The notes under the pieces are model-generated. The model worked only from the letters and a program-made list of their open reading frames with translations. It had not been told where the DNA came from and searched no databases. This document shows, in pieces, positions 9,028 through 26,875 of a DNA stretch of 28,627 nt. The position numbers and the translations under genes are program-made. This stretch comes from an uncultured Muribaculaceae bacterium (GTDB lineage: Bacteria; Bacillota_I; Bacilli_A; RF39; UBA660). Location of the stretch: NCBI GenBank assembly GCA_964611015.1, contig CAZSXH010000001.1, forward strand, positions 1 through 28,627, in the 5' to 3' direction. Every line of letters starts with the position of its first letter. Position 1 is the stretch's first letter.

Positions 9028-9240
9028 ATGAAAAAGTTTAAGGATAAATGTGATGAATGTGGCAATTTTGATTATTTAAAAGGTATAAATGGTAAGTGTT
9101 TATGTTCTAATTGTCAAAATAAATTAAATAAAAATCAAAATATTAAAAAAACACAAAAAAAGAATAAAAATGAATTAAATATATTAGATTTTGCTATAAA
9201 ACTTTCACATTTTTCACAATCAATTGATGATATAATGTAG
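9028..9240 (+). CDS. Small putative zinc-ribbon protein
   Basis: CDEC...CLCSNC; the 3' end overlaps promoter module copy 1. Confidence 0.5.
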   Translation: MKKFKDKCDECGNFDYLKGINGKCLCSNCQNKLNKNQNIKKTQKKNKNELNILDFAIKLSHFSQSIDDIM

Positions 9241-9288
9241 TTATAGAAGTATATAAGCAAGGCAACAATCAAGTTGTCTTTTTTCATG
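9204..9288 (+). promoter_or_regulatory. Late promoter/attenuator module, copy 1 (upstream of HNH-terminase)
   Basis: TTCACA 9204 and 9213, TG-A-TATAAT with -10 at 9231-9236, hairpin AGGCAAC/GTTGTCT 9260-9279, T6-CATG. Confidence 0.7.
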
Positions 9289-9410
9289 TTTATATGAGAG
9301 TATAATAAAACTTTATAGCACCTTTATTTTCTTTTCAGTTCTATAATCTCCTTTATACTCTCATATAAGCATAGAAAAAGGTGCTATGCTTTGTTTTAAA
9401 ATAAGGAGAT
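9286..9410 (+). promoter_or_regulatory. Predicted structured RNA leader (pseudoknot plus anti-Shine-Dalgarno)
   Basis: Perfect 16-bp IR 9290-9305/9353-9368; crossing 11-bp IR 9315-9325/9377-9387; ATCTCCTT 9346-9353 complementary to AAGGAGAT 9403-9410. Confidence 0.5.
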
Positions 9411-9417
9411 GTTTTTC

Positions 9418-9843
9418 ATGTTAAAAAGTTGTGGTAGATGTGGAAAGATACACGATTTTAACAAGACTTGTTATAAGAATAGGCAAGTAAGAGGTTTAAC
9501 AGATGCAGATAAGTTTAGAAAAACTTATAAATGGCATAAGAAAAGTGAAGATATAAGAGAAAGAGATAAACATTTGTGTAGATGTTGCCTAGCAAACATT
9601 TATGAAACAACTCATGTTTTTAACTTTAATAAGTTAGAAGTTCATCATATAACACCACTAGAAGAAGATTTTAGTAAGCGATTAGATGATGATAATTTAA
9701 TAACTTTGTGTTGTTATCATCATAAGTTAGCAGACAATGATGTTATTCCTAGAAATATTTTATATAAACTTATAGATTTCAACTGTGATTTTGAAAAAAT
9801 AAGGCAAGAGGTCGGCTCATTAACCATCCCCCCTGCCTTTTAA
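9418..9843 (+). CDS. HNH endonuclease (terminase-associated)
   Basis: CGRC; IRERDKHLCRCC; LEVHHITPL; DDDNLITLCCYHHKLA; directly precedes terS. Confidence 0.9.
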   Translation: MLKSCGRCGKIHDFNKTCYKNRQVRGLTDADKFRKTYKWHKKSEDIRERDKHLCRCCLANIYETTHVFNFNKLEVHHITPLEEDFSKRLDDDNLITLCCYHHKLADNDVIPRNILYKLIDFNCDFEKIRQEVGSLTIPPAF

Positions 9844-9920
9844 TTTGGATTTTTTTAGATGTTTCAAAACCTACCTGCCACCTAAAAGTGTGAAAAATGC
9901 CCAAAATGAAAAATTTCCAT
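9824..9920. other. Candidate cos/packaging initiation region
   Basis: C-rich islands CCATCCCCCCTGCC (9824-9837) and CCTACCTGCCACC (9870-9882) in AT-rich DNA between HNH and terS, the usual cos position in HNH-terS-terL phages; cut site not determinable. Confidence 0.4.
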
Positions 9921-9951
9921 CAATTGTTGATAAGTTTGGAGGTGATAAGAG

Positions 9952-10464
9952 ATGGCAAGACCAGCAAAAGCAATTGATACTAACTCACAAAAAATGAGTA
10001 AGCAAGAAAGAAAAACAAGAGAAAAAAAAGAAAAAAAGTTAAGAGATAATAATGATAAGATAAAACCTTTTTCTTATCTTACTAAAAGACAAAAAGCAAT
10101 TTTCAAAGATATTCTTAATAACTTGAACCCTGATATATTGAGTAATTTAGATACATACTTATTAAATCAAACTGCTATCACTATTGAAAGACTTGAAAGC
10201 ATAGAAAAGGAAATAAATAGTGCAGGGGAATATGATTATGTTGATAAAAATAATAAGAATAAAAAAGGGTATAGTTTAGATGCTAAAACTATAATAAATC
10301 TAAAGTCTGTTAGAGATATGTATTCTAAAGACTTTTTTAGATGTTGTAATGAGTTGTCATTATCACCACAGGCAAGAGCCAAAATATCTATTAATACACA
10401 ACCAACCAAGAAAAAAACATTAATGGATATTTTGAATGATGAAGATGATGACAATGAAGAATAA
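9952..10464 (+). CDS. terS: Terminase small subunit (P27 family-like)
   Basis: MARPAK N-terminus; ELSLSPQARAKI motif; position. Confidence 0.85.
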   Translation: MARPAKAIDTNSQKMSKQERKTREKKEKKLRDNNDKIKPFSYLTKRQKAIFKDILNNLNPDILSNLDTYLLNQTAITIERLESIEKEINSAGEYDYVDKNNKNKKGYSLDAKTIINLKSVRDMYSKDFFRCCNELSLSPQARAKISINTQPTKKKTLMDILNDEDDDNEE

Positions 10465-12190
10465 TGTAATAGAGAATCATCCAAGTTATATTTATGCAAA
10501 ACAAATAGTTGATGGAACAATCAAACCACCACCATTATTTTATGAACTAAATGGTGAAAAGAAGTTTATACCTCCTAAATATGTAAAAAAGCAATGTAAG
10601 ATATTTTTAGATATTGCAGATGATAAATCTAGTAAGTATGTTATAAATGTTAGTAGAATAAAAAAAATTGATAAGATACTTAAAATATTAGTAATGGCAA
10701 AAGGTATCAAGGTTGGTAAAAAGATTTATGATGCACTTGCAGGATATCAATGGTTAATAATTGTTGCTAGTTTATGTACAGTTTATCGTGATGATAAAAC
10801 TAGGAGAAGATATGAAACAATAATATTGGAAATATGTAGAAAGAATGGTAAAACATTTATAGTTGCACTTATGGTTCTACTATTATTTTATTTAGAACCT
10901 AGATATTCACAATTTTATTCAGTTGCTCCAGATGGTGCATTGGCAAAAGAAATTAAGAAAGCATTGGAACCACTTATAAAAGCAAATACAGAAGTTTTTG
11001 AAGATGGTGAATTTAAAATATTAAGAGATTGCATAAGGCATACTTTAACAGAATCAATATATACACCATTAAATTATTCTAAAGATAGAATGGATGGTAA
11101 AGAACCAAATGTTTTTGTTGCTGATGAAGTAGGTGCATTGCCTAGTGACTACCCAATAGAGGCGATGAGGTCGGGGCAATTGTTAGTTATAAACAAATTA
11201 GGTTTCATAATATCAACCAAATACCCAACTGTTGATAATCCTATGGAAACAGAAGTAAGTTATGCTAAAAAGGTATTGGATAATACTTTGCCTGTACCCG
11301 ATGAAACAGTATTTGCATTATTATATGAACCTGATGAAACTAAAAACTGGACTACTGATGATAATATTATTTTACAATCTAACCCTCTAGCAATTGAAGT
11401 AGAAAAGATATATAAAGATTTAATTTCTAAAAGAAATAAAGCAATCGAGATGGAAAGTAAAAGAGAAAACTTTTTAACAAAGCATTGTAATATTATATAT
11501 CAAGGTGCAGGTACTGAAAGTTTTATAGATGTAACAGAAGTACAAAAATGCAAAGTCGATAAAATCGAGTGGGGAGGTAAAGAAGTTTATATTGGTGTCG
11601 ATTTGTCTATGTCAAATGATAACTGTTCAGTTGCAATGGCGAGTAATGATGATGATGTAATATTAGCAGAAGCGATATCATTTATACCAGAGGGTAGAAT
11701 AGAAGAAAAGAATCAATTTGAAAAACTAAATTATAATGAATTTATAAATGCCATGAAATGTATCGCTTGTGGTGATAGAACTGTTGATTATAAAGTTATA
11801 GAAGATTTTGTTTTTGCAATTGAAAGTAAATATGATGTAACTGTTATGGCAATTGGTTATGATAGATATAATGCTTTATCATCTGCTCAAAAATGGGATG
11901 AAAAATATAATACAGTACAAATTAGGCAACACTCTGATACACTTCATCCACCTACAAAATTATTGTACGAGAAAATCATGGATGGTAAATTTAAGTATGA
12001 AGAAAACAAATTATTGGAAATTAATTTTCAAAATGCAAGATGTGTTTATGATACAAATATGAATAGATATGTTAATAAGAAAAAATCAAATGGTAAAATA
12101 GATATGGTAGTAGCCCTTATTAATAGTATTTACTTATTACAACAAGAAGTATTTCTTGAAAATGGAAACTTTTTTGTTCAGGTTGCATAA
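10454..12190 (+). CDS. terL: Terminase large subunit
   Basis: Walker A ICRKNGKT, Walker B FVADE, nuclease IGVDLS and KIDMVVA; start uncertain among several ATGs 10436-10454. Confidence 0.95.
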   Translation: MKNNVIENHPSYIYAKQIVDGTIKPPPLFYELNGEKKFIPPKYVKKQCKIFLDIADDKSSKYVINVSRIKKIDKILKILVMAKGIKVGKKIYDALAGYQWLIIVASLCTVYRDDKTRRRYETIILEICRKNGKTFIVALMVLLLFYLEPRYSQFYSVAPDGALAKEIKKALEPLIKANTEVFEDGEFKILRDCIRHTLTESIYTPLNYSKDRMDGKEPNVFVADEVGALPSDYPIEAMRSGQLLVINKLGFIISTKYPTVDNPMETEVSYAKKVLDNTLPVPDETVFALLYEPDETKNWTTDDNIILQSNPLAIEVEKIYKDLISKRNKAIEMESKRENFLTKHCNIIYQGAGTESFIDVTEVQKCKVDKIEWGGKEVYIGVDLSMSNDNCSVAMASNDDDVILAEAISFIPEGRIEEKNQFEKLNYNEFINAMKCIACGDRTVDYKVIEDFVFAIESKYDVTVMAIGYDRYNALSSAQKWDEKYNTVQIRQHSDTLHPPTKLLYEKIMDGKFKYEENKLLEINFQNARCVYDTNMNRYVNKKKSNGKIDMVVALINSIYLLQQEVFLENGNFFVQVA

Positions 12191-12192
12191 CT

Positions 12193-12278
12193 TTCACACT
12201 TTTCACACTCTATTAATGATATAATGTATAGTAGATAAGTATAAAAGAAAGCAAACAGAAATGTTTGTTTTTTTCGTG
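12193..12278 (+). promoter_or_regulatory. Late promoter/attenuator module, copy 2 (upstream of portal)
   Basis: TTCACA 12193 and 12202, TG-A-TATAAT with -10 at 12220-12225, hairpin GCAAACA-GAAA-TGTTTGT 12251-12268, T7-CGTG. Confidence 0.7.
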
Positions 12279-12299
12279 TTATAGAAAGGAGGTATAACA

Positions 12300-13556
12300 A
12301 TGTCTATTTTTGATAAGATTTTAAAACGAGAAGAAGAAAAAGAAGTTGAAGTAACAGATGAAAATACAACAGAATCAAGTAATGATTCACCACAAGACTT
12401 ACTTTTAAAAAGTTTGTTAAGAGGCGAAAAAATAACAAAAGAAAAAGCATTGTCAATACCTGCTATTTCTAGTGCAGTTGATAGGATTTCAAATTCGGTC
12501 GCCATTTTACCAATTAAAATGTATAAGTATGTAACAGATGAAAATGGAATAGAAACAGTTGTTGAAGTAAAAGATGATGTTAGATTAAAAATCTTGAATA
12601 TTCAAACTGGAGATTTGCTTAATCCATTTAATTTAAAAAAATCAATAGCATATGATTATCTTACTGAAAAAGGTGCTTATGTTTATATTGAAAAAGATAG
12701 AAACGAATTTAAATCTTTAAGATATGTTGAACCTGATTATATTTCTTTTCAATCTAATTATGACCCAATATTTAAAGATGTTAAATATAATGTTTATGGT
12801 AAAGATTATGAAATGTATGATTTTTTAACAATTGTAAGAAATACCACATGTGGTTATAAAGGAACAAGTGCTATTGAAGAAATATCAAATTCAATTGAAA
12901 CTGCTTTTACAACTATAATGTATGAATTAGGGCTTGTTAAAAAAGGTGGTGCAAAAAAAGGATTTCTTACTGCTACTAGAAAATTAGGAAAAGATGAAAT
13001 TAAGTTATTAAAAGATGCTTGGAATAAATATTATGGTGGCAATAATGAAGAAAATGTAATTGTATTAAATGATGGCATTGATTTCAAAGAGGGTGCAAGT
13101 TCATCAGTTGAATTACAAATGAATGAAAGAAAGAAAACCTTAAAAGAAGATATCAATGATGTATTTCACATATCTTCTAATTATAATGACACCATCAAAG
13201 ATGCAGTAATGCCAATTATAAGTGCAATTGAAACTGAATTAAATAATCATTTCTTGTTAGAAAGTGAAAAAGATTCTTATTATTTTGCTTTCGATACGAA
13301 GAAGATTACAAGAGGTTCATTAAAAGAAAGATATGAAGCATATAAAATAGCATCTGATACAGGATGGATGACAAAAAATGAAATTAGATATGCAGAAGAT
13401 TATGATTCAATTGATGGATTAGATGTTGTAAGTATGAATTTAGCAAATGTCTTATATGATGTTAAAACTAAAAAATATTATACACCTAACACAGGTTCAG
13501 TAATGAACATAGAAAAAGGAGGAGGTGAGAACAATGAAAATCGAAGTAAGAAATGA
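12300..13556 (+). CDS. Portal protein, HK97 family
   Basis: ALSIPAISSAVDRISNSVAILPI; IVLNDGIDF; GWMTKNEIRYAED; position after terL. Confidence 0.92.
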   Translation: MSIFDKILKREEEKEVEVTDENTTESSNDSPQDLLLKSLLRGEKITKEKALSIPAISSAVDRISNSVAILPIKMYKYVTDENGIETVVEVKDDVRLKILNIQTGDLLNPFNLKKSIAYDYLTEKGAYVYIEKDRNEFKSLRYVEPDYISFQSNYDPIFKDVKYNVYGKDYEMYDFLTIVRNTTCGYKGTSAIEEISNSIETAFTTIMYELGLVKKGGAKKGFLTATRKLGKDEIKLLKDAWNKYYGGNNEENVIVLNDGIDFKEGASSSVELQMNERKKTLKEDINDVFHISSNYNDTIKDAVMPIISAIETELNNHFLLESEKDSYYFAFDTKKITRGSLKERYEAYKIASDTGWMTKNEIRYAEDYDSIDGLDVVSMNLANVLYDVKTKKYYTPNTGSVMNIEKGGGENNENRSKK

Positions 13557-14415
13557 TAAGGTTATCATTGATGGATATGTAAATGCAGTAGATAGGTTTT
13601 CTAAAATTCTTTACGATAAACGAGGGCAATTTATTGAAAAAATAATGCCATCTGTATTTCGTAGAGCATTAGAAAAAAATGAAGCAGTTAAAGTTCTCCT
13701 TAACCATGATTATGATAAAGAATTAGCCAATACCAAAAATGGTAGTGCTAAACTTTATGAAGATAATATAGGTTTAAGAGCCATTGTTGAAATAACAGAT
13801 GCTGATGTTATAGATAAAGCCAAAAAGAAAAAGTTAAGAGGTTGGTCATTTGGATTTGCCTGTAATAAGGATGAAGAAGTTGTTAATAACAATGGTTTAA
13901 GAGAAAGAAGTGTAAGAGATATTGATTTATTTGAAGTATCAATTATTGATGATAAAAAGATACCTGCTTATATAGGCACTAGCATAGAATTACGAGATGG
14001 AAACCCAACTGTTGTAGAATATAGAGATGAAGAGTTTGAAAATGACTCTTTTTCTTATGAAAAAGAAGATGAAGAAACAACCCCAAATTTTAGTGATATG
14101 ACTGCATCACAAAAGAGGGAAGTTTTAAATAGTGCTTATAGGCAACTATTTAAAGATGGTTGGTTAGAAGATTACGATGATGAATTTGTTTATGGAACAA
14201 TTCAAGATGGTAGTCAATTGTATAAGATGCCTTATTCAATAACTGATGGAACAGTTAATATTGATAGTAATAATCAAGTTAAAGTTGTTCGTGGGGGTTA
14301 TAAGGAAATAAGGTCAGATGAGGAAGTGCCTGAACAACCACCAAAAGTGGATGGTAAAAAAATAGATTACTCAAGTTATGAGAATGTTCTAAAAGAACTT
14401 AAAGGAGGAAAGTAA
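13534..14415 (+). CDS. Prohead protease (HK97/S78 family) with C-terminal extension
   Basis: IDGYVNAV, LLNHD (His), GWSFGF (Ser), LFEVSII; about 130 extra acidic residues C-terminally. Confidence 0.9.
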   Translation: MKIEVRNDKVIIDGYVNAVDRFSKILYDKRGQFIEKIMPSVFRRALEKNEAVKVLLNHDYDKELANTKNGSAKLYEDNIGLRAIVEITDADVIDKAKKKKLRGWSFGFACNKDEEVVNNNGLRERSVRDIDLFEVSIIDDKKIPAYIGTSIELRDGNPTVVEYRDEEFENDSFSYEKEDEETTPNFSDMTASQKREVLNSAYRQLFKDGWLEDYDDEFVYGTIQDGSQLYKMPYSITDGTVNIDSNNQVKVVRGGYKEIRSDEEVPEQPPKVDGKKIDYSSYENVLKELKGGK

Positions 14416-14416
14416 A

Positions 14417-15616
14417 ATGAATAAGAAAAGTTTAGAAGAACAAAAAAATGAAAAAGTAACAGAAATGGATAAGTTACTAAACGATGTAAAGGCAGAAGAA
14501 AGAGCATTTACAGAAGATGAACAAAAACTATTTGATGAATTAAAGTCAGAAATAGAAGCAATCAATAAAACTATGGAAGCATTTGAATCAAGTAGAGAAT
14601 TAGTTGATGATGAAAAGAAAGAAGAAGATAAAAAAAAGGAGGAAGAAAACATGGATGAAGAAAAAAGAGCATTAGAAATTGAACAAAGGGATATTGAAAA
14701 CTTTGCTAAATTTATCAGAAATGAAGTATTAAATGAAGAAAGGTCTGAAACAGGTAGTCAATTTACAACAGGTAGTAATGGTGTAATTGTTCCAACAACA
14801 ATTGCTAATAAAATCATTATGACTGCTCATAATATGTCACCTATCCTAGATAAAGCAACTAAATATAATACTAAAGGAAATTTGGAAATCCCTGTTTATG
14901 GTGCTAATAATGGAGATGACATCACAGTTGCATATGGTGAAGATTTTACAGAATTAGTTGAAAAAGCAGGTAAATTTTCATCAGTAACTTTAAAAGATTA
15001 CTTAATTGGTGCATTAGCAAAAATCGGTAATTCTTTAGTAAATAATACTGATATCGATTTAGTAAATGTTGTTATTAATATCATTGCTGAATATGTAAAA
15101 TTATTCCTAGAGGGTGAAGTATTAAATGGTACTGATGGTAAGATTACTGGATGTAGTGGTATTCCTGCTTCACAAACAGTTGAATCAGAAGTAGCAGGTG
15201 TTATTTCTTATGATGATTTAGTAAAAGTTAAAAATAAAGTTATTCAATCATTCAGAAAAGGTTCTATTTGGGTTATGAATCAAGACACTCAAACAGTTCT
15301 TGAAACCATGAAAGATGGTAATGATAGACCAATATTTGTACCAGACCCAACAGGTGAATTTGATGGTATGGTTCTAGGATATCCTGTTTATGTTTCTGAT
15401 AATAAAGAGGGAATTGCAGAAGGTAAATCTCCAATCACATTTGGTAACTTTAGTGGTATTGCTTTAAAAACATCTAAATCTCTTGAAATTCAAGTTTTAA
15501 GAGAAAAATATGCTACTCAACATGCAACAGGTGTAGTTGCTTGGTTAGAGTGCGATGCTAAAATTGAACATCTTCAAAAATTATCTAAACTAACTATCAA
15601 AGCAAAAACAAACTAG
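14417..15616 (+). CDS. Major capsid protein, HK97 fold with N-terminal delta domain
   Basis: Coiled-coil N-terminus; GVIVPTTIA; WVMN; KDGNDRPIF; LGYPVYVSD; FGNFS. Confidence 0.95.
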   Translation: MNKKSLEEQKNEKVTEMDKLLNDVKAEERAFTEDEQKLFDELKSEIEAINKTMEAFESSRELVDDEKKEEDKKKEEENMDEEKRALEIEQRDIENFAKFIRNEVLNEERSETGSQFTTGSNGVIVPTTIANKIIMTAHNMSPILDKATKYNTKGNLEIPVYGANNGDDITVAYGEDFTELVEKAGKFSSVTLKDYLIGALAKIGNSLVNNTDIDLVNVVINIIAEYVKLFLEGEVLNGTDGKITGCSGIPASQTVESEVAGVISYDDLVKVKNKVIQSFRKGSIWVMNQDTQTVLETMKDGNDRPIFVPDPTGEFDGMVLGYPVYVSDNKEGIAEGKSPITFGNFSGIALKTSKSLEIQVLREKYATQHATGVVAWLECDAKIEHLQKLSKLTIKAKTN

Positions 15617-15626
15617 GAGGTAACTT

Positions 15627-16022
15627 ATGTATCTAGTAAATAAAGGATTTGCTAATAGTGAGATATCTGCATCAAAGGGCAAAGTCATTGATATAAAAGA
15701 TAAATCATTGGCTTCTGCTCTTGAAAGTGCAGGATTTATTTCACCTTATTCTGAAAAAGCAATGACAAATAAAGAAATGGAGAAAACTATTAAAGATTTA
15801 ACTAAACAGTTAAGTGATAAAGATAGTGAAATTCAAACTTTAAATGATAAAATTGCTGAATTAGAAGAAGAGTTAAAAGTTAAATTAGAAGAAAATTCTG
15901 ATGATAATAAAGATAATTTAGATAATGGTGAACAACCACCAAAAAATGAAGATGAAGATGGTACAACACCAAATGAAAATGATGGTGAAGAACCAAAAGA
16001 TGAAAACGAAAACAACGAGTAA
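15627..16022 (+). CDS. Head-associated hypothetical protein (coiled coil plus acidic tail)
   Basis: RBS ggagg; follows capsid gene; D/E/N-rich C-terminus. Confidence 0.55.
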   Translation: MYLVNKGFANSEISASKGKVIDIKDKSLASALESAGFISPYSEKAMTNKEMEKTIKDLTKQLSDKDSEIQTLNDKIAELEEELKVKLEENSDDNKDNLDNGEQPPKNEDEDGTTPNENDGEEPKDENENNE

Positions 16023-16066
16023 GTAATTTAGATTGTTCAGGCGACTCCATGAAAGGAGGAATAGTT

Positions 16067-16366
16067 ATGATTACTAAAGTTAGTGAAATAACAGTAGATA
16101 GTATAAAAGACTATTTACGATTATCTGATATTTCAGATGAAGATAAAAAATATCTTGAAACAATAAAAAAGGTTGCTATTGATTATATTAAGAATAATAC
16201 AGGATTAGATGACAAAACTATTGAGAAATATAATGATTTAGTTATTGTGGTATATGTCTTATGCCAAGATATGTATGATACAAGGGCTTATTATGTTGAT
16301 AACAATAATGTTAATAGGGTTGTTCAATCTATACTTGATATGCACTCAAGGAATCTAATATCATGA
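16067..16366 (+). CDS. Head-tail connector (gp6/gp15-like)
   Basis: IKDYLRL...LCQDMYDTR...VVQSILDMH; position. Confidence 0.85.
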   Translation: MITKVSEITVDSIKDYLRLSDISDEDKKYLETIKKVAIDYIKNNTGLDDKTIEKYNDLVIVVYVLCQDMYDTRAYYVDNNNVNRVVQSILDMHSRNLIS

Positions 16367-16704
16367 GTAATATTATAAAAAATGCAGGTAAATATAATAA
16401 GTTAATTGAGATAATTAGTATTAAAAATATTAAAGATGAAGATGGTTTTGATAAACCATCTGAAACTTCAATATTAAAGACATATGCAAGTGTTAAAACA
16501 ACAAAAGGTTATACACTTATTCAAAGTAATTCAGACTTTGAAAAGGCATATACTAATTTTACAATTAGATATCCTGCAAAAGCAATTATTACAAGAGATA
16601 TGAAAATAAAATTTAATGGCAAAATTTATTCTATTGAATATTTGAATAATATTAATGAAGAATCTATTGAGTTAGAGATACAAGCGAAAGTTGTTGATAA
16701 GTAG
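16363..16704 (+). CDS. Head closure/head-tail adaptor (SPP1 gp16-like)
   Basis: AGKYNKLIEI...FTIRY...ITRDMKIKFNGKIYSI. Confidence 0.85.
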   Translation: MSNIIKNAGKYNKLIEIISIKNIKDEDGFDKPSETSILKTYASVKTTKGYTLIQSNSDFEKAYTNFTIRYPAKAIITRDMKIKFNGKIYSIEYLNNINEESIELEIQAKVVDK

Positions 16705-17117
16705 TGGCACACTTCAATCAAGAATTGCCAAATGATTTAATAAAAGAATTTGAAGAATTGGCGATAGCAACACCCAAAATGATGGGTGAAATGACAAAGG
16801 CAGGTGCTGAAACAGTTGCAAGAATTGTTAAAAATAATATGTCAAAGTCATTTAAAAAAACAGATAGATTAAGTAAGTGCTTATTTGTTTCAAAAACATA
16901 TCGAACACCATCAGATGATGGAATAAATAATAAAGTCATGATTTATGGCTATATGGATGCTGAAAAAAAGCATCCTGCACCATTAGTAGCGATGGCAAGA
17001 GAATATGGTACTAGCATGGGAGAAAAGAAGAAACCTTTCTTTAGAAAATCTTTTAGAAAGGCAGATATTGAAAATGCTATGAAACAGAAAGAAAAAGAAT
17101 ACTTACCAAAAGGATGA
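16704..17117 (+). CDS. HK97 gp10-like neck protein
   Basis: REYGTS...KPFFRKS motif; position. Confidence 0.8.
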   Translation: MAHFNQELPNDLIKEFEELAIATPKMMGEMTKAGAETVARIVKNNMSKSFKKTDRLSKCLFVSKTYRTPSDDGINNKVMIYGYMDAEKKHPAPLVAMAREYGTSMGEKKKPFFRKSFRKADIENAMKQKEKEYLPKG

Positions 17118-18881: not shown

Positions 18882-21383
18882 ATGGCAAGTTCATTTGGTG
18901 GAACAGTAAAGTTGACAGGTGAAAGCGAATATGTAAAAGCATTAAGAAACATTAATAGCAATTTAAAAGCAGTTAGTAGCGAATTAAAATTGGCATCCAC
19001 AGAATTTGATAATAATGGGTCAAAAATAGGCGATTTAAGGACAAAAAATGATGCTTTAAATAAAAAGTTACAAGAAGAACAAAACATTGTTAAAACATGT
19101 GCAGAAGCCATTAAAAACTTTACTGAACAACAAACAAAAAACAAAAATGAAATTGATAAGTTAAAAAATTCATTAAGTAGTGAACAACAAACACTAGAAA
19201 AAATGAAAAATAGCACTACTGCAACAAGTTCTGAAATATCAAAACAAGAAAAGGTAGTTGCTGATTTAGAAAAAGAATTATCAAAGGCAGAAAGTAGTTA
19301 TGATAGTAATAATAGAAAGATAAATGATTACAAAGCCAAAATGAATACTGCTAAATCAGAATGTAGTGACTTATCGAAAAAAATTCAAGATAATAATTCA
19401 GTTTTAGATAAAGCAGGTAAAAGTTTTGATAATGATGCTAAATCGGTAAAAGACTTTGCCAAAGAAGAAGAAAATGCAGGTAAAAATACTCTTACATTAG
19501 GTGATTTGATAAAAGGTAACTTAATAAGTGAGGGAATTATTGCAGGTATTAAAGGGTTAGCAAGTGCCATGAAATCAGTTGGTTCTGCAATGTTAGATGT
19601 AGGAAAACAAGCAGTTAGTTCTTATGCTGATTACGAACAATTAGTAGGTGGTGTTGAAACATTATTTAAAGATAGTGCAGGTGTAGTAGAAAACTATACC
19701 AACAATGCTTATAAAACAGCAGGTATGTCAGCAAATGAATATATGGATACTGTTACTTCATTTAGTGCATCATTATTACAAAGTTTAAATAATGATACAG
19801 GTAAGAGTGCAGAATATGCAGATAGAGCAATTATCGATATGGCAGATAATGCAAATAAAATGGGTACATCAATGGATATGATACAGAGTGCATATCAGGG
19901 ATTTGCTAAACAAAATTATACAATGCTAGATAACCTTAAATTAGGTTATGGTGGTACTAAAACAGAAATGGAAAGATTAATTTCTGATGCCAACAGAGTT
20001 AAAGTAGCAAATGGAGAAATGGCAAATTTGTCTATTGATAGTTTCGCTGATATAACCGAAGCAATTCATATTATTCAAAATGAAATGGGTATCACAGGAA
20101 CAACTGCTAAAGAAGCAAACGAAACAATTTCAGGGTCAATTGCCTCTACTCAATCAGCATGGAAAAATCTTTTAACAGGTTTAGCAAATGGTAATGCTGA
20201 TTTATCAGGATTAATGAAAAATCTAGTTGATGGTGTTATGACAACTGCAAATAATATTATGCCAGTAGTAGAGCAAGTAGCAGATAGTATTGTAGAAATG
20301 ATACCAGAAGTATTAAATAACATAATTGCATATTTGCCTAAATTTTTAGAAACAGGAAGTTCTATATTAACAAAATTGATTACAGGTTTAACAAATAATA
20401 TGCCATCAATTATGACTGCAGTTATGCAGATAATAAACATGATTATAACAACTATTATTCAAAATTTACCTCAAATATTAAAAATGGGTATTCAAATGGT
20501 AGTATCTTTGGCTCAAGGAATAGCAGAACAATTACCAACTTTAATACCACAAATGATTGATGCAGTTGTATTAATGGTCGAAACATTATTAGATAATATC
20601 GATTTAATCATTGATGCAGGTATTCAATTATTGATGGGATTAGCCGATGGTCTAATTACTGCTTTGCCTGATTTAATAGATAAAATTCCTGAAATAATAG
20701 ATAAATTAATTGATGCTATTGTTAATAATTTACCAAAGTTAATTGAAGCAGGTATAACCTTAATAGTTAAATTAGCAGAGGGATTAATAAAAGCAATTCC
20801 AAAATTAGTTGCTAAAATTCCACAAATAATATCTTCTTTAATAAGTGGTATTGCTAGTTATTATGGCAAACTTGGAGAAATAGGTAAAAATCTATTAGGA
20901 AAAGTTAAAGATGGAATTACAAGTGGTATATCAGGTATGCTTAATATAGGTAAAAATCTTGTTCAAGGATTATGGAATGGTATCAGTAATGCTAAAGATT
21001 GGGTATTAGATAAAATTAAAGGATTTGGTAAGTCAATTGTGAATGGAATTAAAGGTATATTTGGTATTCATTCGCCATCAAGAGTATTTAGGGATGAAAT
21101 TGGTGTTAACTTGGCAAAAGGTATTGGTGTAGGATTTCAACAAGAAATGTCTGATGTAAATGATACTATACAAAGGGCTTTGCCAACTGATTTAGATTTA
21201 TCAACAAAAGTAAATTTGAATAAGCCAAATTCAATATTTTCATCAGATGGAAGTAAGAATAATCAAACTTCTAACAAAGTTGAAAATAATACTTATAATT
21301 TCTATTCTCCAAAAGATACACCAAGCGAGTATGCAAGACAAATTCGTAAAGAAAAACAATATTTAGATTTGGTAGGTGCTTAA
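18882..21383 (+). CDS. Tape measure protein
   Basis: 833 aa; coiled coil N-terminus, YEQLVGGVETLF...NYTMLDNLKLGYGGT block, helical repeats, GIHSPSRVF. Confidence 0.92.
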   Translation: MASSFGGTVKLTGESEYVKALRNINSNLKAVSSELKLASTEFDNNGSKIGDLRTKNDALNKKLQEEQNIVKTCAEAIKNFTEQQTKNKNEIDKLKNSLSSEQQTLEKMKNSTTATSSEISKQEKVVADLEKELSKAESSYDSNNRKINDYKAKMNTAKSECSDLSKKIQDNNSVLDKAGKSFDNDAKSVKDFAKEEENAGKNTLTLGDLIKGNLISEGIIAGIKGLASAMKSVGSAMLDVGKQAVSSYADYEQLVGGVETLFKDSAGVVENYTNNAYKTAGMSANEYMDTVTSFSASLLQSLNNDTGKSAEYADRAIIDMADNANKMGTSMDMIQSAYQGFAKQNYTMLDNLKLGYGGTKTEMERLISDANRVKVANGEMANLSIDSFADITEAIHIIQNEMGITGTTAKEANETISGSIASTQSAWKNLLTGLANGNADLSGLMKNLVDGVMTTANNIMPVVEQVADSIVEMIPEVLNNIIAYLPKFLETGSSILTKLITGLTNNMPSIMTAVMQIINMIITTIIQNLPQILKMGIQMVVSLAQGIAEQLPTLIPQMIDAVVLMVETLLDNIDLIIDAGIQLLMGLADGLITALPDLIDKIPEIIDKLIDAIVNNLPKLIEAGITLIVKLAEGLIKAIPKLVAKIPQIISSLISGIASYYGKLGEIGKNLLGKVKDGITSGISGMLNIGKNLVQGLWNGISNAKDWVLDKIKGFGKSIVNGIKGIFGIHSPSRVFRDEIGVNLAKGIGVGFQQEMSDVNDTIQRALPTDLDLSTKVNLNKPNSIFSSDGSKNNQTSNKVENNTYNFYSPKDTPSEYARQIRKEKQYLDLVGA

Positions 21384-21384
21384 T

Positions 21385-22245
21385 ATGTCAAAGAAAATAG
21401 TATGTGAAAATTATCTAAAAGAAAAAATAACATTTGAATATAAATTTCCATTTTTTCTTAAAAGTGTAGATGGATTGCATGAAGTATTGGGTGTAGTTGC
21501 AGGTATGAAAAGTGCATATGCAATAGGAGAAAATTATATTGGTACCAGTATAGAAAAAAGAAATATAATTATCAAGGGTGCTATTAGAGATGATGTCATC
21601 TCTAATAGACAAAAGTTATATCGTGTATTTCCTTTAAAATCAACTGGTACACTTTATTACTATGAAGATGGTTTAGAAAGAAAAATTGAATATAAGGTAG
21701 AATCAATTCAAATTGATAACAAAGGATTGCATAAACAATTTCAAATATCTTTAATTTGCCCTGACCCATATTTTACTGATTTAGAGAAAACACAACTTCA
21801 AATGGCAACATGGTCGCCTAACTTTAAATTCATATTAAAAATACCACACGATACTGGTATTAAATTTGGTGTAAAAAATACAACTTCTATGGCTACTATA
21901 CAAAATGACACTAATATAGAATTTGGAATGACTTTAACATTTACTGCAAATGATACAGTTGTCAATCCATCCTTATTTAATGTTGATTCAAGAGAAGAAA
22001 TGAAGATTGAAAAGACAATGGAAGCAGGAGATAAGATTATTGTAAATACTTATAGACAGAATAAAAATATTATTTATATACCTGCAAGTACAGGAATTGA
22101 AGAAAATATTAACAATTTAATGGTTTATGGCAGTAAGTTCTTGCAAGTACATCATGGAAGTAATACATATCGATATAATGCTGATACAGGAGTTGATAAT
22201 CTTGAAGCAGTTATCGAATATGTAAATGAATATGAGGCAGTATAA
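21385..22245 (+). CDS. Distal tail protein (Dit)
   Basis: Follows TMP; QFQISLICPDPYF; LQVHHGSNTYRY. Confidence 0.8.
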   Translation: MSKKIVCENYLKEKITFEYKFPFFLKSVDGLHEVLGVVAGMKSAYAIGENYIGTSIEKRNIIIKGAIRDDVISNRQKLYRVFPLKSTGTLYYYEDGLERKIEYKVESIQIDNKGLHKQFQISLICPDPYFTDLEKTQLQMATWSPNFKFILKIPHDTGIKFGVKNTTSMATIQNDTNIEFGMTLTFTANDTVVNPSLFNVDSREEMKIEKTMEAGDKIIVNTYRQNKNIIYIPASTGIEENINNLMVYGSKFLQVHHGSNTYRYNADTGVDNLEAVIEYVNEYEAV

Positions 22246-23291
22246 TGATAAAAGAATTTGATATTTATGTTTATACAAGAGATATAGAACTTATTGGTGT
22301 CATAGACTTTTTTAGTTCGTTAAGATGGCGAAGAAGATATTATGATTCTGGAGAATTTGAACTTCATATTCCACTTAATAATCAAACAGTAAAGTTTTTA
22401 AAGAAAGACAATCTAATTATTAGAGATGATGCCATAGAAGTTGGTATCATCGAAAGTTTTACTATTAATGATGAAAATGAAGATGGTGTTGAAGTTATTA
22501 TATATGGTAGATTTTTATCAAGTATATTAGATAGAAGAATAATCAAAACAAAAATAAATTTTAGTGGCGATATTTTGGCAGGAGAAAGAAAAATATTAAG
22601 TGAAATGTCGCCTTTTTCTAAATTAGAAATAAGTAAAACACCATTAAAGGGAGGTAATGTGGTATTCCAATCAACTTATAAAAATGTTTATGAATATTTA
22701 GTAACTTTAGCAAAAATATCAACAATAGCACACAGAATATCAGTTGATATACCAAATAAAAAATTTATTTATGAGAATTATCAAGGTTTAGATAGAACTG
22801 AAACACAATCAATTAATCCTAGATATGAGTTTAGTGAAGATAAATCAAATATCGAAGTGGCAGAATACACTTATAGTGCCAAAACAGAAAAGAATTATGT
22901 TTTAGTTGGTGGTCAAGGCGAAGATATAAATAGAATTATGGTTGAAGTTAAGAGTGGTAACTATGAAGATTTTGATTTAAGAGAAACTTTTGTAGATGCA
23001 AAATCAGAAAATCAAGGAGATTTATCACTTGCACAATACAAAGAAACTTTAAAAACAAAAGGTTCAGAAAAACTAATAGAAACAACAGAAAGTCTTGAAG
23101 TAACTGTATATGCAGATGACTATAAGAAATTATGGGATTTAGGTGATATTGTTAATGTAAAAAAAGAATCATGGGGAATTGCATTAAAACAAAGAATTAC
23201 TGAAATAGAAGAAACCATTGAAAATAATAATCAAAAGATTTATGCAACATTTGGAACACCATTTGTTGAAAATCTTGAAATTAATAATTAA
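22245..23291 (+). CDS. Baseplate hub/Tal (Sipho Gp37-like)
   Basis: SLRWRRRYYDSGEFELH; RETFVDA; WDLGDIV; RITEIEE. Confidence 0.82.
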   Translation: MIKEFDIYVYTRDIELIGVIDFFSSLRWRRRYYDSGEFELHIPLNNQTVKFLKKDNLIIRDDAIEVGIIESFTINDENEDGVEVIIYGRFLSSILDRRIIKTKINFSGDILAGERKILSEMSPFSKLEISKTPLKGGNVVFQSTYKNVYEYLVTLAKISTIAHRISVDIPNKKFIYENYQGLDRTETQSINPRYEFSEDKSNIEVAEYTYSAKTEKNYVLVGGQGEDINRIMVEVKSGNYEDFDLRETFVDAKSENQGDLSLAQYKETLKTKGSEKLIETTESLEVTVYADDYKKLWDLGDIVNVKKESWGIALKQRITEIEETIENNNQKIYATFGTPFVENLEINN

Positions 23292-23304
23292 GGAGGAATG
23301 AAAA

Positions 23305-24846
23305 ATGGAAAAATATAGTTTTTTTAATGATGTAGATGGAGATAGAGTTTATTATGCAGAAGATTTTGCAAGACATTTAGCAAAATATTTTACAAATGGT
23401 ATATTTAATAATAGTTGCCAAGTATTAGGTAATGCTGATGATATGGCAGTTAATGTTAGTGTTGGTTCTGCTAATATTAATGGTTACAGATATGATAATG
23501 ATGCAATTAAAACACTTTCAATAGAAAATGCTGATGGTGTTTTAAATCGTATTGATAATATTGTCATCAGATTAGATTTAACTAATAGAGTTATTACTGC
23601 TCAAGTTATAAAAGGAACATTTGCTAATAATCCAGTAGCACCCAATCTAGTGAGAACATCAACAACTTATGATTTAAGAATTGCAAAAGTATTTATTCCT
23701 GCAGGTACAACAGAAATAACACAAGATTTAATCGAGGATTGTAGATTTATAACAAGTGATTGTGGTGATGTTATATCTACTGTTGAAACACCTGATACAG
23801 AACAATTATTTATACAAATACAAGCATTATTTGATAAGTTTATCGCTGATAATACAGAGAGTTTTAACACTTGGTTTGAACATATTAAAGATAAATTAAC
23901 AACTGACCAAGCAGGTAACTTACAAAGTGAAATTGATGCAATGACACCTGATATAGAACAATTAAAAGATGATGTAGATGTTCTTCAAGAAAATATTTTA
24001 GATTTTGAACAATCAAGAACAATAAATGGTGATACAAAAGTTAATGTTTATAAACCTAAAAATGAAAAAGCAATTGAAAGCGAATCTATAAGAGTAGGTG
24101 ATTATAAATTAACTGATATAATTGGTAATAATAATGCAGGATTTCATAATTCGATTTTTAGAGGAAAAGATGTTACCAAATATTATAATGATGGTAGTTT
24201 ATATACTAGAATATCAAGTGGTAAATTTGAAGATTTATTTGTAGGTGATTATATAATTAAGAATAACATCACTTGGCGAATTGCAGGATTTGATGTATAC
24301 TTACATAAGGGCGACACCGAACTAACGAAGCATCATGCAATTATAGTGCCTGATAAACATTTAACAACTGCACAAATGAATAGTACAAATACAAGTGCAG
24401 GTGGTTATGTTGGAAGTGAAATGTATAAAACTGTACTTCCTAGTGTTTTATCAACTTATATCACACCTGTTTTTGGCAATCATGTTATAGAATATAGAAA
24501 TTTATTAACTAATTCTATAAATGCAACTGGATATAATAGATTTGGTACTAATAGTGGTTGTTCGAATGGTTGGGACTGGTATAGTCGTAAACTTGATTTA
24601 ATGAATGAAGTTCAATTATTTGGAAGTATTACATGGTCAAGTAGTGGATATGATATCGGAACTGATAATTGCCAATTACCATTATTTAGATTAGCACCTG
24701 AATATATTACTAATAGGTCTTATTGGTGTTGGTTAAAAGCCGTAACAACGGCTTCTGCTTTCGCTTATGTCCTCCGCAATGGTTATAGCAACAACAACAA
24801 TGCTTCTGGTGTGGGTGGTGTTCGCCCCTGCTTTTACATCGATTAA
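23305..24846 (+). CDS. Baseplate/receptor-binding protein, DGR target (C-terminal CLec-like domain)
   Basis: N-terminal YSFFNDVDGDRVYYAEDF...RIDNIVIRLD baseplate module, coiled coil, then a C-terminal domain ending YWCWL...GVRPCFYID that contains the VR. Confidence 0.88.
   Translation: MEKYSFFNDVDGDRVYYAEDFARHLAKYFTNGIFNNSCQVLGNADDMAVNVSVGSANINGYRYDNDAIKTLSIENADGVLNRIDNIVIRLDLTNRVITAQVIKGTFANNPVAPNLVRTSTTYDLRIAKVFIPAGTTEITQDLIEDCRFITSDCGDVISTVETPDTEQLFIQIQALFDKFIADNTESFNTWFEHIKDKLTTDQAGNLQSEIDAMTPDIEQLKDDVDVLQENILDFEQSRTINGDTKVNVYKPKNEKAIESESIRVGDYKLTDIIGNNNAGFHNSIFRGKDVTKYYNDGSLYTRISSGKFEDLFVGDYIIKNNITWRIAGFDVYLHKGDTELTKHHAIIVPDKHLTTAQMNSTNTSAGGYVGSEMYKTVLPSVLSTYITPVFGNHVIEYRNLLTNSINATGYNRFGTNSGCSNGWDWYSRKLDLMNEVQLFGSITWSSSGYDIGTDNCQLPLFRLAPEYITNRSYWCWLKAVTTASAFAYVLRNGYSNNNNASGVGGVRPCFYID
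24750..24830 (+). repeat. DGR variable repeat (VR)
   Basis: 81-bp copy of 25472-25552 with 6 mismatches (24766, 24772, 24773, 24775, 24776, 24784), all opposite TR adenines. Confidence 0.97.
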
Positions 24847-24883
24847 TCCTTAATCACACCCCCTTGTGGGGTGGGTTAAGGAT
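24846..24883 (+). promoter_or_regulatory. Hairpin/cruciform downstream of VR/IMH (DGR target-recognition element)
   Basis: ATCCTTAA 24846-24853 / TTAAGGAT 24876-24883 plus inner CACCCC/GGGGTG around a 5-nt loop. Confidence 0.75.
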
Positions 24884-24901
24884 ATCGAGGGAGGAACAAT
24901 A

Positions 24902-25456
24902 ATGAGTGTATTGAAAAGAAAAAGAAACATATCAAAAATGGAATTTTATCATAATGCGATAAAATTACGATTGATGATAACTGAATTTCTTTTGAAAGAT
25001 TTTGGAATAAAATCAAGAAGAAGAAATTTGGAATTTGCCAAAGAAGTATATGATATGGAAGATGAAGATATCTCTCAAATGGAAGATATTTTGTCTGCAT
25101 ATGATATCAAAAATAGTTTCATCGATAACTTTCCAACTTGGCTAATTGATAAAGAAAGAGATTATTTCATGGATTTATTGCGAGATATGATGAAAAATAT
25201 TTGTTCTGCAAATACAATTCACATCACGAATAAAGAAGAATACTATATGCGAAGAAACTATCAAACACAAGCCATTTGCAATTGCGAAAATCTTCTTCAA
25301 GAAATGCAATATATAATCTTTGTATGTCATCCAAATGTAGAGAAGTACATGAAATATGTTGATATGATTGAAAAAGAAATTGTGTTGTTAAAAGGTTGGC
25401 GAAAATCTGATAATAAAATCTTTAAGGAATTAGAAAATAAAGATAAACAAGGGTAA
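24902..25456 (+). CDS. avd: DGR accessory variability determinant (Avd-like)
   Basis: Between target gene and TR; helical; ...CENLLQEMQYI...EIVLLKGWRKSD resembles the Avd four-helix bundle; RBS gagggagg before ATG 24902; 184 aa. Confidence 0.8.
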   Translation: MSVLKRKRNISKMEFYHNAIKLRLMITEFLLKDFGIKSRRRNLEFAKEVYDMEDEDISQMEDILSAYDIKNSFIDNFPTWLIDKERDYFMDLLRDMMKNICSANTIHITNKEEYYMRRNYQTQAICNCENLLQEMQYIIFVCHPNVEKYMKYVDMIEKEIVLLKGWRKSDNKIFKELENKDKQG

Positions 25457-25471
25457 GGTTTGTAATTACTG

Positions 25472-25552
25472 GGCTTCTGCTTTCGCTAATGTCAACAACA
25501 ATGGTAATAGCAACAACAACAATGCTTCTGGTGTGGGTGGTGTTCGCCCCTG
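25472..25552 (+). repeat. DGR template repeat (TR)
   Basis: Intergenic AAC/AAT-rich copy of VR: GCT TCT GCT TTC GCT AAT GTC AAC AAC AAT GGT AAT AGC AAC AAC AAC AAT GCT TCT GGT GTG GGT GGT GTT CGC CCC TG. Confidence 0.97.
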
Positions 25553-25640
25553 ATTTTAACTCGCACAATGATTAGGTTAAGTACCGTTGCGATAATTAAA
25601 AGGAAACTTTATCCTGTCCGAAAGGCAAATAGATATTTTG
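25553..25640 (+). ncRNA. TR-RT spacer, likely structured 3' part of the DGR RNA
   Basis: TCGCA..AATG/CGTTGCGA stem (25561-25592); TG-T-CC-GAAA-GGCA GNRA hairpin (25615-25627) flanked by TATC/GATA. Confidence 0.45.
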
Positions 25641-25678
25641 ATACTTTTTGATAAGTCAATTAAAGTTAGGAACAAAAT

Positions 25679-26818
25679 ATGATTAATAAGATTAGTAATG
25701 CCAATGTTTTAATAAATAGTTTTTATGAAGCCAAAAAAAATTGTAGTTGGAAAAATAGTGTTCAACAATATGAAGCAAATCTCTTAAGAAATATTAGAAA
25801 AACACAAATAGAATTAAGAAGTAAGACTTATAGGCAAGGTGAGTTTTATAGTTTCTATCTATGTGAAAGAGGAAAAGAAAGATATGTTCGCTCCATTTGT
25901 TTCTATGATAGGGTTATACAAAGGGCTTTGTGTGACCAATTAAATCCCATAGTTGAACCATATCTAATACATGATAATGGTGCAAGTGTGAAGAAAAAAG
26001 GCATTGATTTTGCTAGGAGAAGAATAGAAAATCATTTGCATAAATATTATAGAAAGTATGGGAATCAAGGATATGCACTCGTTATTGATTTCAGTAAGTT
26101 TTATGATAATATACTTCATAAACCTTTAATGGATATGTACAGAGAAATTATTGATGATGAGGATATAATTAATTTAATTAGTCATTTAGTCGATAGTTTT
26201 TCTGTCGATATATCCAATTATGATAAGACAGAAACTGATTTGTTTGATTCGTTATCATATGCAAAAGCGAATACTGATAACACAGGCGAAAAGTTTATGA
26301 ATAAATCTTTGGGAATAGGTAGTCAAATATCGCAGATATCGGGCATTTATTACCCTCATGAAATGGATAATTATTGTAAAATAGTTAAAGGTATTAAGTT
26401 CTATGGAAGATATATGGATGATACTTATATCATAAGTAATAATAAAGAAGAATTAAAACAGTTACTTGAAGATATAGATAAGATATGTAAAAAGTTAGGT
26501 ATATTTATTAATAGAAAGAAAACTCAAATATTTAGATTAGATAAAGGTTTTACCTTTTTAAAAATAAAGTATAGATTAACTGAAACAGGGCATCTTGTAA
26601 GAATACCAATAAAAGGCAATTTTGTCAGAGAAAGAAGAAAGTTAAAAAGTTTTAAAAATATGCTTGATAATGGCAAAATTTCTTTTAGAGATATAGAAGA
26701 ACAATATAAGTCTTGGAAAGGAAACATATCTAAATATGATTGTCATAGAACAATCAGAAATATGGATAAATTATTTGATGATTTATTCATAAATAATAAT
26801 TCACAAAATTCACACTAA
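25679..26818 (+). CDS. DGR reverse transcriptase
   Basis: GKERYV, DRVIQRAL, DFSKFYDNI, LGIGSQISQ (SQ signature), YGRYMDD, GFTFLK; 379 aa, no endonuclease domain. Confidence 0.95.
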   Translation: MINKISNANVLINSFYEAKKNCSWKNSVQQYEANLLRNIRKTQIELRSKTYRQGEFYSFYLCERGKERYVRSICFYDRVIQRALCDQLNPIVEPYLIHDNGASVKKKGIDFARRRIENHLHKYYRKYGNQGYALVIDFSKFYDNILHKPLMDMYREIIDDEDIINLISHLVDSFSVDISNYDKTETDLFDSLSYAKANTDNTGEKFMNKSLGIGSQISQISGIYYPHEMDNYCKIVKGIKFYGRYMDDTYIISNNKEELKQLLEDIDKICKKLGIFINRKKTQIFRLDKGFTFLKIKYRLTETGHLVRIPIKGNFVRERRKLKSFKNMLDNGKISFRDIEEQYKSWKGNISKYDCHRTIRNMDKLFDDLFINNNSQNSH

Positions 26819-26875
26819 ATAAGTGATATAATGTATATAGAAGATAAGGCAATGAAAGAATTGTCTTTTTTCGTG
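26800..26875 (+). promoter_or_regulatory. Late promoter/attenuator module, copy 3 (upstream of lysis genes)
   Basis: TTCACA 26800 and 26809, TG-A-TATAAT with -10 at 26827-26832, hairpin AGGCAAT/ATTGTCT 26847-26866, T6-CGTG. Confidence 0.7.

Follow-up and report, generated by a model that had tools for sequence, protein, structure and literature searches.

The three late units of the gut-bacterial phage in the window, the 28,627-nt stretch of DNA analysed here as a whole, are each preceded by a module in which a predicted promoter is followed by a predicted terminator. On balance, we consider it probable that these modules are Ltr-type late promoters with a built-in terminator, and that the regulator acting upon them would also confer read-through of that terminator. 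Judged from the sequences, this layout of promoter and built-in terminator is conserved in approximately 100 related phages. We found no paper describing a promoter-plus-terminator late module of this kind, and literature searches for TTCACA late promoters, or for antitermination in connection with RinA/ArpU, returned nothing.

Tandem boxes and an extended -10 precede each late unit

The motif TTCACA-N3-TTCACA-N12-TATAAT is present in three exact copies, all on the + strand of the 28,627-nt window (9204-9236, 12193-12225 and 26800-26832), in agreement with an earlier, sequence-only reading that had described a three-copy element with a fixed N12 spacing ahead of TATAAT. No further copy was found in the window, even when 3 mismatches were allowed, or in the remainder of the 0.96-Mb MAG. 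Shuffled sequence gave a mean of 0.26 matches to the motif, and 3 or more matches were obtained in 0 of 100 shuffles. The extended -10 TGATATAAT is found at every copy, and TGATATAATGTA is read in all three. In family A, the sequence past the -10 is conserved as GTAnnT.

In module 1, the tandem boxes (9204-9218, + strand) would lie at about -39 to -34 and -30 to -25, with the extended -10 at 9228-9236 and a predicted start near 9243. The boxes of module 2 (12193-12207, + strand) begin 3 nt past the terL stop and are followed by the extended -10 at 12217-12225, while those of module 3 (26800-26814, + strand) overlap the final codons of the RT gene, with the extended -10 at 26824-26832. The boxes abut or overlap the stop codon of the upstream gene in all three copies. 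The whole module spans about 85 bp.

The modules head the blocks to which they had been assigned, all on the + strand. Late unit 1 (9409-12190) contains genes for an HNH endonuclease, a small ORF, terS and terL; late unit 2 (12300-26818) runs from portal, protease and major capsid through the tail genes and tape measure to a DGR target and RT; and late unit 3 (26904-28420) encodes two holins and an endolysin. A small zinc-ribbon protein is encoded by ORF 9028-9240 directly ahead of module 1. Megablast of positions 9000-13000 against cultured phages gave no match.

A predicted leader terminator is conserved among related phages

Downstream of the -10, each module continues on the + strand into a hairpin that runs into a series of T residues. 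Folding and terminator scans placed the hairpin of module 1 at 9259-9280 and its T6 run at 9279-9284, followed by CATG; the corresponding elements are at 12250-12269 (hairpin) and 12268-12274 (T7) in module 2, and at 26847-26867 and 26866-26871 (T6) in module 3, both followed by CGTG. A simple terminator scan, which caught copy 1 only because it demanded 3 G-C pairs, was replaced by RNAfold-based scans; at the same threshold, only 9 terminator-like sites occur on the whole + strand of the window. The T6-7-C(A/G)TG tail of the sequence-only reading is matched in each module, and its hairpin stands with some correction, the measured start being 14-24 nt past the -10 rather than 15-26 bp and the stem having 8 pairs rather than 7 once flanking A-U pairs are included. 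The T-runs end 33-43 nt past the predicted start site. The predicted short RNAs of 33-43 nt, close to the 30-45 nt proposed before, fold at -8.9, -11.7 and -10.9 kcal/mol for modules 1, 2 and 3 (z-scores -2.9, -4.5 and -2.8), and the modules appear to have the stable RNA hairpin directly abutting a U-tract by which intrinsic terminators are recognized. No Rfam family was found in the window. In copies 2 and 3, an RBS and start codon follow within 25-32 nt of the terminator (portal ATG at 12300, 25 nt past the run; holin ATG at 26904, 32 nt past the run), so that every late mRNA must cross it.

The core stems of the module hairpins are modest, at -4 to -6 kcal/mol. The strongest terminator of the window is found at the end of the lysis unit (28441-28473, + strand; -11.4 kcal/mol in the RNAfold-based scan), and a d'Aubenton-type score, which uses modern energies, is uncalibrated and provides a relative ranking only, is +10.5 for this terminator compared to near -2 for the module hairpins. 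The latter may terminate leakily, and a leaky stop could suffice here. This property suits an alternative that we regard as unlikely though deserving of weight, namely plain Ltr activation, in which the regulator would only raise initiation, a fixed fraction of polymerases would leak through without specific antitermination, and the hairpin would mainly stop early transcripts or those of the preceding late unit. Family-A stems, which are short and A/U-rich, are consistent with this alternative. So is the position of the boxes at the upstream stop codon, shared by family B, which means that the upstream unit can be terminated only beyond the promoter; likewise, three separate promoters would be needed if each unit ended at the next terminator.

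The search over related phages suggested by the sequence-only reading revealed a conserved family, with 98 non-redundant modules gathered from IMG/VR and gut MAG prophages in which 12 or 11 bp separate the boxes from the -10. By spacing, 66 non-redundant relatives fall at 12 and 14 at 11, with only 2 at any other value, and complete relatives carry 1-3 exact motif copies each. A terminator was predicted within 130 nt in 84 of the 98 modules, compared to 105 of 1500 random windows (7%); one motif-bearing relative, L018, is without a terminator. In each of the 41 window-like IMG/VR modules, a hairpin with 6 T or more is found, starting 32-48 nt past the -10. These 41 contain approximately 10 different stem sequences, and compensatory changes at 5 of the 8 consensus stem pairs indicate that the stems covary. 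The median distance between T-run and start codon in window-like phages is 24.5 nt (13-32 nt in 47/54), too short to accommodate a further promoter, so that the terminator has to be traversed by late mRNAs. The promoter-proximal terminator proposed from the window alone is predicted to be real, conserved and necessarily read through. In family A, the 8-25 nt ahead of the hairpin are too few for a riboswitch-like leader, which we rejected. In public RNA runs, at most 11% of the sampled sequence words were present, as contigs only.

The comparison with relatives argues against plain activation with a leaky terminator. Relatives have GC-rich terminators of 15-16 bp (-15 to -24 kcal/mol, and -15 to -20 kcal/mol in distant families) located 12-26 nt ahead of the first late ORF, too strong for leakage to be of use. 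An unregulated attenuator, moreover, gives no better on/off ratio, and the order of promoter then terminator is kept in about 90% of the 98 modules even though 30 extra bases would permit the reverse.

The candidate regulator encoded by ORF 1968-2378

The candidate late regulator gene (1968-2378, + strand) adjoins the replisome organiser gene, 6.8 kb ahead of module 1, and encodes a protein of 136 amino acids; ATG 1968 is the probable start, in a frame open from GTG 1956. In the modelled protein, a helical hairpin at the N-terminus precedes a sigma-region-4-like HTH at the C-terminus. In fold searches, the C-terminus of the model superposes on sigma region 4 structures with an rmsd of 2.4-3.8 Å over 50-63 residues, and these searches returned sigma region 4 only and no Q. 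The product matches phrog_36, phrog_248 and the Alt-like phrog_2198, contains a sigma-70 region 4 stretch (E 4.5e-5), and has a weak match to DUF1492 that is under the Pfam cut-off (E 0.0055); among 42 homologues, DUF1492 is found in 22 and Sigma70_r4 in 8-9. By sequence and predicted fold, it is an Ltr-type, DUF1492/LtrB-like member of the RinA/ArpU/Ltr superfamily. Tblastn gave remote 'RinA-like' matches in Faecalibacterium phages only. We rejected a complete alternative sigma factor, since two helices forming a hairpin, and not a sigma-2 domain, make up the N-terminal half, and the -10 is of the sigma-A type.

The TTCACA hexamers, which the sequence-only reading took to be tandem sites for a phage regulator, very probably serve as binding sites for this product, as predicted from two observations: a regulator homologue is present in 12/12 near-complete motif-bearing phages, and in the distant relatives of family B the boxes form the final 21 nt of the regulator gene itself.

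PHROG, Pfam, NCBIfam and fold searches found no homology of the regulator to any known antiterminator, which counts against the explanation that we favour. Alternatively, read-through could be real but depend on a host factor, a different phage protein or leader-coupled events, with the Ltr-like protein acting as an activator only; we judge this to be quite improbable. Many early ORFs have no assignable function, and the zinc-ribbon ORF lies just ahead of module 1, both of which leave room for such a factor. The regulator, however, is the sole early-region product found together with the motif in families A, B and C, and no other recognizable transcription factor was found among the early ORFs scanned; in addition, the family-A leaders are too short for an RNA antiterminator element. 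The zinc-ribbon protein was rejected as an essential partner because its ORF is missing in close relatives.

Stem-loops at the 5' end are known to stabilize mRNAs in Firmicutes. The hairpin, always in the 5' UTR 13-32 nt ahead of the start codon, is nevertheless very improbable as an element of mRNA stability, processing or translation, because a hairpin abutting 6-8 U is an intrinsic terminator signature, a stabilizer needs no U-run and is expected at the extreme 5' end, and relatives carry canonical GC-rich terminators in its place, nor are the 33-43-nt RNAs plausible as functional small RNAs with a common target, given that stem sequences vary freely between copies and phages.

Proposed mechanism

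In the mechanism that we favour, an Ltr-type late promoter with regulator-dependent read-through, two copies of the ORF 1968-2378 product, with its coiled-coil hairpin and sigma-region-4-like HTH, would bind in tandem to the -35-like TTCACA hexamers, whose centres lie near -36 and -27, as co-occurrence and fold suggest. At these positions the hexamers should be unusable by host sigma-A region 4 together with the -10. Host sigma-A RNA polymerase would then use the consensus extended -10, and by sequence and comparison the transcript would meet the hairpin and U6-7 terminator at about +33 to +43. We infer that polymerase started at a regulator-occupied promoter becomes terminator-resistant; this might come about if the sigma-4-like protein remained on the beta-flap/RNA-exit region in early elongation. 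Polymerase coming from the early genes, or started without the regulator, would stop and yield the 33-43-nt RNA. Packaging, morphogenesis and lysis genes would thereby be expressed under tight control of the regulator, with a logic like that of pR'/Q and a protein unrelated to Q. Promoters 2 and 3 would be redundant under a processive mechanism like that of Q, which counts against this explanation, as do the modest stability of the window's hairpins and the motif-bearing relative without a terminator. As a separate observation, a terminator-like hairpin and T-run with no TTCACA promoter ahead of it (27350-27376, + strand) lies inside the lysis unit between holin 2 and the endolysin, a possible hint of processive read-through.

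Relationship to Ltr and RinA late promoters

The Ltr superfamily regulators of late genes in Gram-positive siphophages include RinA, ArpU, LtrA (Sigma70_r4), LtrB (DUF1492), LtrC and Alt of TP901-1, and according to the accepted model the RinA/ArpU/Ltr superfamily acts by promoter activation, not antitermination (PMC3152322; PMC3753634). The sequence-only reading had contrasted the modules with simple RinA-type activation; this contrast is not supported, because the regulator itself belongs to the RinA/ArpU/Ltr superfamily (DUF1492, Sigma70_r4), and the rinA-terS sequence of 80alpha has the same layout of repeats, leader and terminator. Both systems have a small regulator whose C-terminus is sigma-region-4-like or of the DUF1492 type, a late promoter bearing direct repeats (at the regulator gene end in distant relatives of the window phage), packaging, morphogenesis and lysis genes as targets, and a terminator between repeats and terS, 80alpha included. 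They differ in that the window phage has three late promoters per genome rather than one upstream of terS, and in that its regulator gene is in the replication region, 6.8 kb upstream; the classic RinA/ArpU arrangement of a regulator gene ending in boxes is seen in family B but not in the window. Furthermore, the boxes form a pair of -35-like hexamers whose distance to a consensus extended -10 is fixed at 11-12 bp, and the terminator is 33-43 nt from the start, directly ahead of the RBS, making read-through unavoidable.

In Ferrer 2011, a terminator was described in the rinA-terS interval, and RinA was reported to bind over 155 bp upstream of the mapped start; the authors considered the mechanism 'more complex' than direct activation (PMC3152322). 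We tentatively raise the possibility, which we would not yet call probable, that Ltr-family regulators generally (RinA, ArpU, LtrA-C, Alt-like) are sigma-region-4 mimics that load onto polymerase at the promoter and cause it to read through the leader terminator, and not simple activators. If true, this would explain why RinA binds so far upstream of the terS 5' end with a terminator between, and would place the Ltr-family regulators of Firmicute phages in the functional role that Q has in lambdoid phages. Late-gene control sets the timing of packaging and lysis in temperate Firmicute phages and thus also affects when phages, and the islands hijacking them, transfer genes. Among the sequences examined, the module appears to be the cleanest case of a read-through step within the RinA/ArpU/Ltr switch, and the system, which comprises only about 85 bp of DNA and one 136-aa protein, could lend itself to in vitro tests and to use as a tight genetic switch.

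Relationship to lambdoid Q and T4 middle promoters

The resemblance to lambdoid pR'/Q noted in the sequence-only reading holds for the logic but not for the protein. As at pR' of lambda, 82 and 21, a strong promoter has an intrinsic terminator close behind it and a short RNA is expected, the regulator site, a putative one in the window, is inside the promoter, and the late genes are past the terminator; in the window, the U-run of the predicted terminator ends at +33 to +43, ahead of the late genes. The Q21 site is reportedly also a direct repeat. No Q-family protein (Q-lambda, Q82, Q21) was found in PHROG, Pfam and NCBIfam scans of the early region and most late-gene ORFs. We read the modules as late promoters of the Ltr type that would work by Q-like logic, and not as a Q system, antitermination itself being the conditional part. 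The window also differs from lambdoid phages in having three loading sites rather than one, and a leader of 33-43 nt compared to 194 nt for the lambda 6S RNA.

In the T4 middle promoters (sigma appropriation by MotA/AsiA), an activator box takes the place of the -35, some 12 bp ahead of a -10 of the sigma-70 type, and the normal region 4/-35 contact is unused, as is predicted for the window modules. The window phage differs in having two tandem boxes and a leader terminator, and MotA/AsiA homologues were not found. As for a sigma-dependent pause element of the lambdoid kind, the bases past the -10 are conserved as GTAnnT in family A, and in many family B and C modules a second TAnnnT hexamer abuts the -10, in an AT-rich region whose position, -6 to -1, is unlike that of the pause element of lambda.

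A three-copy module at the late gene blocks

The contig is a siphophage. Its replisome organiser (1091-1978), small regulator (1968-2378) and Xer-like recombinase (6444-7085) are followed by an HNH endonuclease (9409-9843), terS and terL (ending at 12190), the portal (starting at 12300), the protease, capsid and tail genes and tape measure, a diversity-generating retroelement with reverse transcriptase (DGR; ending at 26818), and two holins and then the endolysin (first holin starting at 26904). The whole window contains exactly three TTCACA-N3-TTCACA-N12-TATAAT sites (9204, 12193 and 26800, all on the + strand), with no further site when up to three mismatches were tolerated, and based on the gene order these head the packaging, morphogenesis and lysis blocks. 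Dinucleotide shuffles gave a mean of 0.26 matches and never reached three, and no copies were found elsewhere in the 0.96-Mb MAG, of which the window is one entire contig. A consensus extended -10, TGATATAATGTA, is identical in all three copies. The sequence-only reading had placed the two TTCACA boxes 21 and 12 bp from the -10, and these distances were borne out; taking the start as 7 nt past the -10 hexamer, the boxes lie at about -39 to -34 and -30 to -25.

Each module continues on the + strand into a hairpin and T-run (copy 1, 9259-9280 and 9279-9284; copy 2, 12250-12269 and 12268-12274; copy 3, 26847-26867 and 26866-26871). The predicted RNAs of 33-43 nt have energies of -8.9, -11.7 and -10.9 kcal/mol and z-scores of -2.9, -4.5 and -2.8 for copies 1, 2 and 3. 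Only nine terminator-like sites were found by the same measures on the whole + strand, three of them being the modules and one the end-of-lysis terminator.

Conservation of the promoter geometry

An exact-pattern scan of IMG/VR yielded 93 loci and a species-genome scan 25 more. The latter belong to MAGs of uncultured gut Bacilli, 'Tenericutes' and Mycoplasmatota, and some are prophages within contigs as long as 425 kb. When the spacer was left free from 6 to 19 bp, it was 12 bp in 66 non-redundant modules, 11 bp in 14 and of another length in only two. The modules fall into three groups. Family A resembles the window, with TATAAT-GTA and a short leader. The phages of families B and C are richer in GC, and their leaders, of 55-110 nt, end in long GC-rich terminators. 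Complete family-A genomes carry 3, 3, 2, 2, 1 and 1 exact copies, and family-B genomes one each. At L153 (10535-10580), L160, L165 and loci of family B, the -10 is directly adjoined by a further hexamer that resembles it (TATAAT, TAAAAT or TATTCT). Where the spacing is 11 bp, this hexamer lies exactly 17 bp from the second TTCACA box, and the pair has canonical sigma-A geometry that overlaps with the extended -10 promoter.

The terminator as a conserved part of the module

In family A, each of the 41 non-redundant IMG/VR modules carries a hairpin that abuts at least six T and starts 32-48 nt past the -10. About ten different stem sequences occur among them, and in RNAalifold five of the eight consensus pairs showed compensatory changes even though the alignment was imperfect. 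Across all families a terminator (-7 kcal/mol or better, within 130 nt) is present in 84 of 98 modules, compared to 105 of 1500 random windows of the same loci, and most of the 14 remaining modules have visibly the same hairpin just below threshold. In family A the distance from the T-run to the next start codon, which may be that of an HNH, portal, holin or other gene, has a median of 24.5 nt and is 13-32 nt in 47 of 54 modules. This stretch contains the ribosome-binding site and has no room for a second promoter, so at the level of sequence the late mRNAs must cross the terminator. Among the terminators of families B and C, several with energies of -15 to -20 kcal/mol lie no more than 12-26 nt upstream of the first late ORF, which in one case is terS-like.

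At other loci the inserts behind the terminator are tRNA genes or morons with their own canonical promoter. In family B, tRNA genes (Ala, Asn, Thr, Ile) lie directly behind the leader terminator at L006 (386-722), L012, L017, L034 and L065, so their expression would also depend on read-through. At L110 (2068-2300), a canonical TTGACA-17-TATAAT promoter behind the terminator drives a HicA-like toxin ORF, and this insert looks like a moron that has come to separate the late genes from the late promoter.

A candidate regulator

A homologue of ORF 1968-2378 was detected in 26 of the 49 viral records that bear the motif and in all 12 records at least 90% complete, which span families A and B and one outlier; none was found in four records with a chance-looking motif, which are 2-53% complete. 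The family-B proteins are 21-26% identical to that of the window, and their boxes fall within the last 21 nt of the regulator gene, the arrangement described for the Ltr proteins, whose activator gene is immediately followed by the direct repeats (PMC3753634). The window's protein scores weakly for DUF1492 and sigma-70 region 4; among 42 homologues, 22 match DUF1492 and 8-9 match Sigma70_r4. The AlphaFold model (mean pLDDT 78) has two long antiparallel helices, a disordered conserved tip and then a three-helix HTH. The Foldseek matches were all local and all to structures of sigma region 4, for example sigma-E region 4 on -35 DNA; no Q protein was among them. TTCACA differs at one position from the -35 consensus TTGACA, so a region-4-like domain reading displaced -35-like hexamers makes a coherent picture, and we infer that such a domain, detached, reads the two boxes. 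Among the early ORFs the only other recognisable transcription factor is a Cro-like fragment where the contig begins (1-228), and beyond this fragment the contig has no obvious lysogeny module.

Proposed read-through and comparison with known systems

The promoter geometry, the terminator and the obligatory passage of late mRNAs through it can be read from the sequence. In the mechanism that we propose, the regulator would bind the TTCACA boxes and would be what permits read-through of the terminator. We lean modestly toward regulator-dependent read-through because the strong terminators of relatives cannot leak enough, the short family-A leaders could not accommodate an RNA switch, a fixed attenuator brings no regulatory gain, and the order of promoter then terminator is kept almost without exception. 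In the main alternative, which we consider less likely, the regulator would only activate, and a leaky terminator would serve mostly to insulate the late units from upstream transcription. In the window this alternative is favoured by the modest hairpins and by the boxes abutting the stop codons of upstream genes.

The element belongs with the Ltr late promoters and not with the Q systems. What sets it apart from Ltr control as published is its three promoters, displaced regulator gene, fixed 11-12-bp geometry and unavoidable leader terminator. The published RinA data pose the same puzzle: rinA and terS are separated by a terminator, and the mapped 5' end lies more than 155 bp downstream of where RinA binds (PMC3152322). 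In the 80alpha sequence, TGGCAGT occurs twice directly past the rinA stop, with TAAAAT 10 nt on, a 9-bp-stem terminator about 100 nt beyond that and the terS ATG 42 nt after the T-run. The RinA-dependent 5' end, however, was mapped downstream of this terminator (PMC3152322), which argues against simply extending the read-through reading to RinA. We found no antitermination proposal for the RinA/ArpU/Ltr superfamily in the literature. The host of the phage is uncultured, and in public RNA runs only fragments from relatives occurred.

Additional features of the window

An extra ~120 nt (9286-9408) separates the module 1 terminator from the HNH start; two TATAAT hexamers and an inverted repeat of 16 bp lie within it. 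Such a long gap is optional: of the 54 modules only 7 have it, each of them preceding HNH (102-133 nt, one 379 nt), the others having 13-32 nt. A 70-aa ORF at 9028-9240 carries two CxxC pairs (zinc ribbon). It is not conserved in close relatives, and the TTCACA boxes specify its C-terminus (..KLSHFSQS..), read in the frame that also gives the family-B regulator C-terminus (..LSHFSQK*). The mid early region holds a PAPS-reductase-like ORF (4694-5572), and the Xer-like tyrosine recombinase there is short (213 aa). In the DGR (23305-26818), the GC-rich hairpin GGGTGGTGTTCGCCC at 24813-24827 and again at 25535-25549 marks the VR and TR ends, and the reverse transcriptase (phrog_1423, RVT_1; 25679-26818) is directly 5' of module 3. 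Within 27350-27420, a terminator-like hairpin with T7 lies between holin 2 and the endolysin, which probably starts at the ATG at 27413, with an RBS (agaggtg), rather than at 27500.
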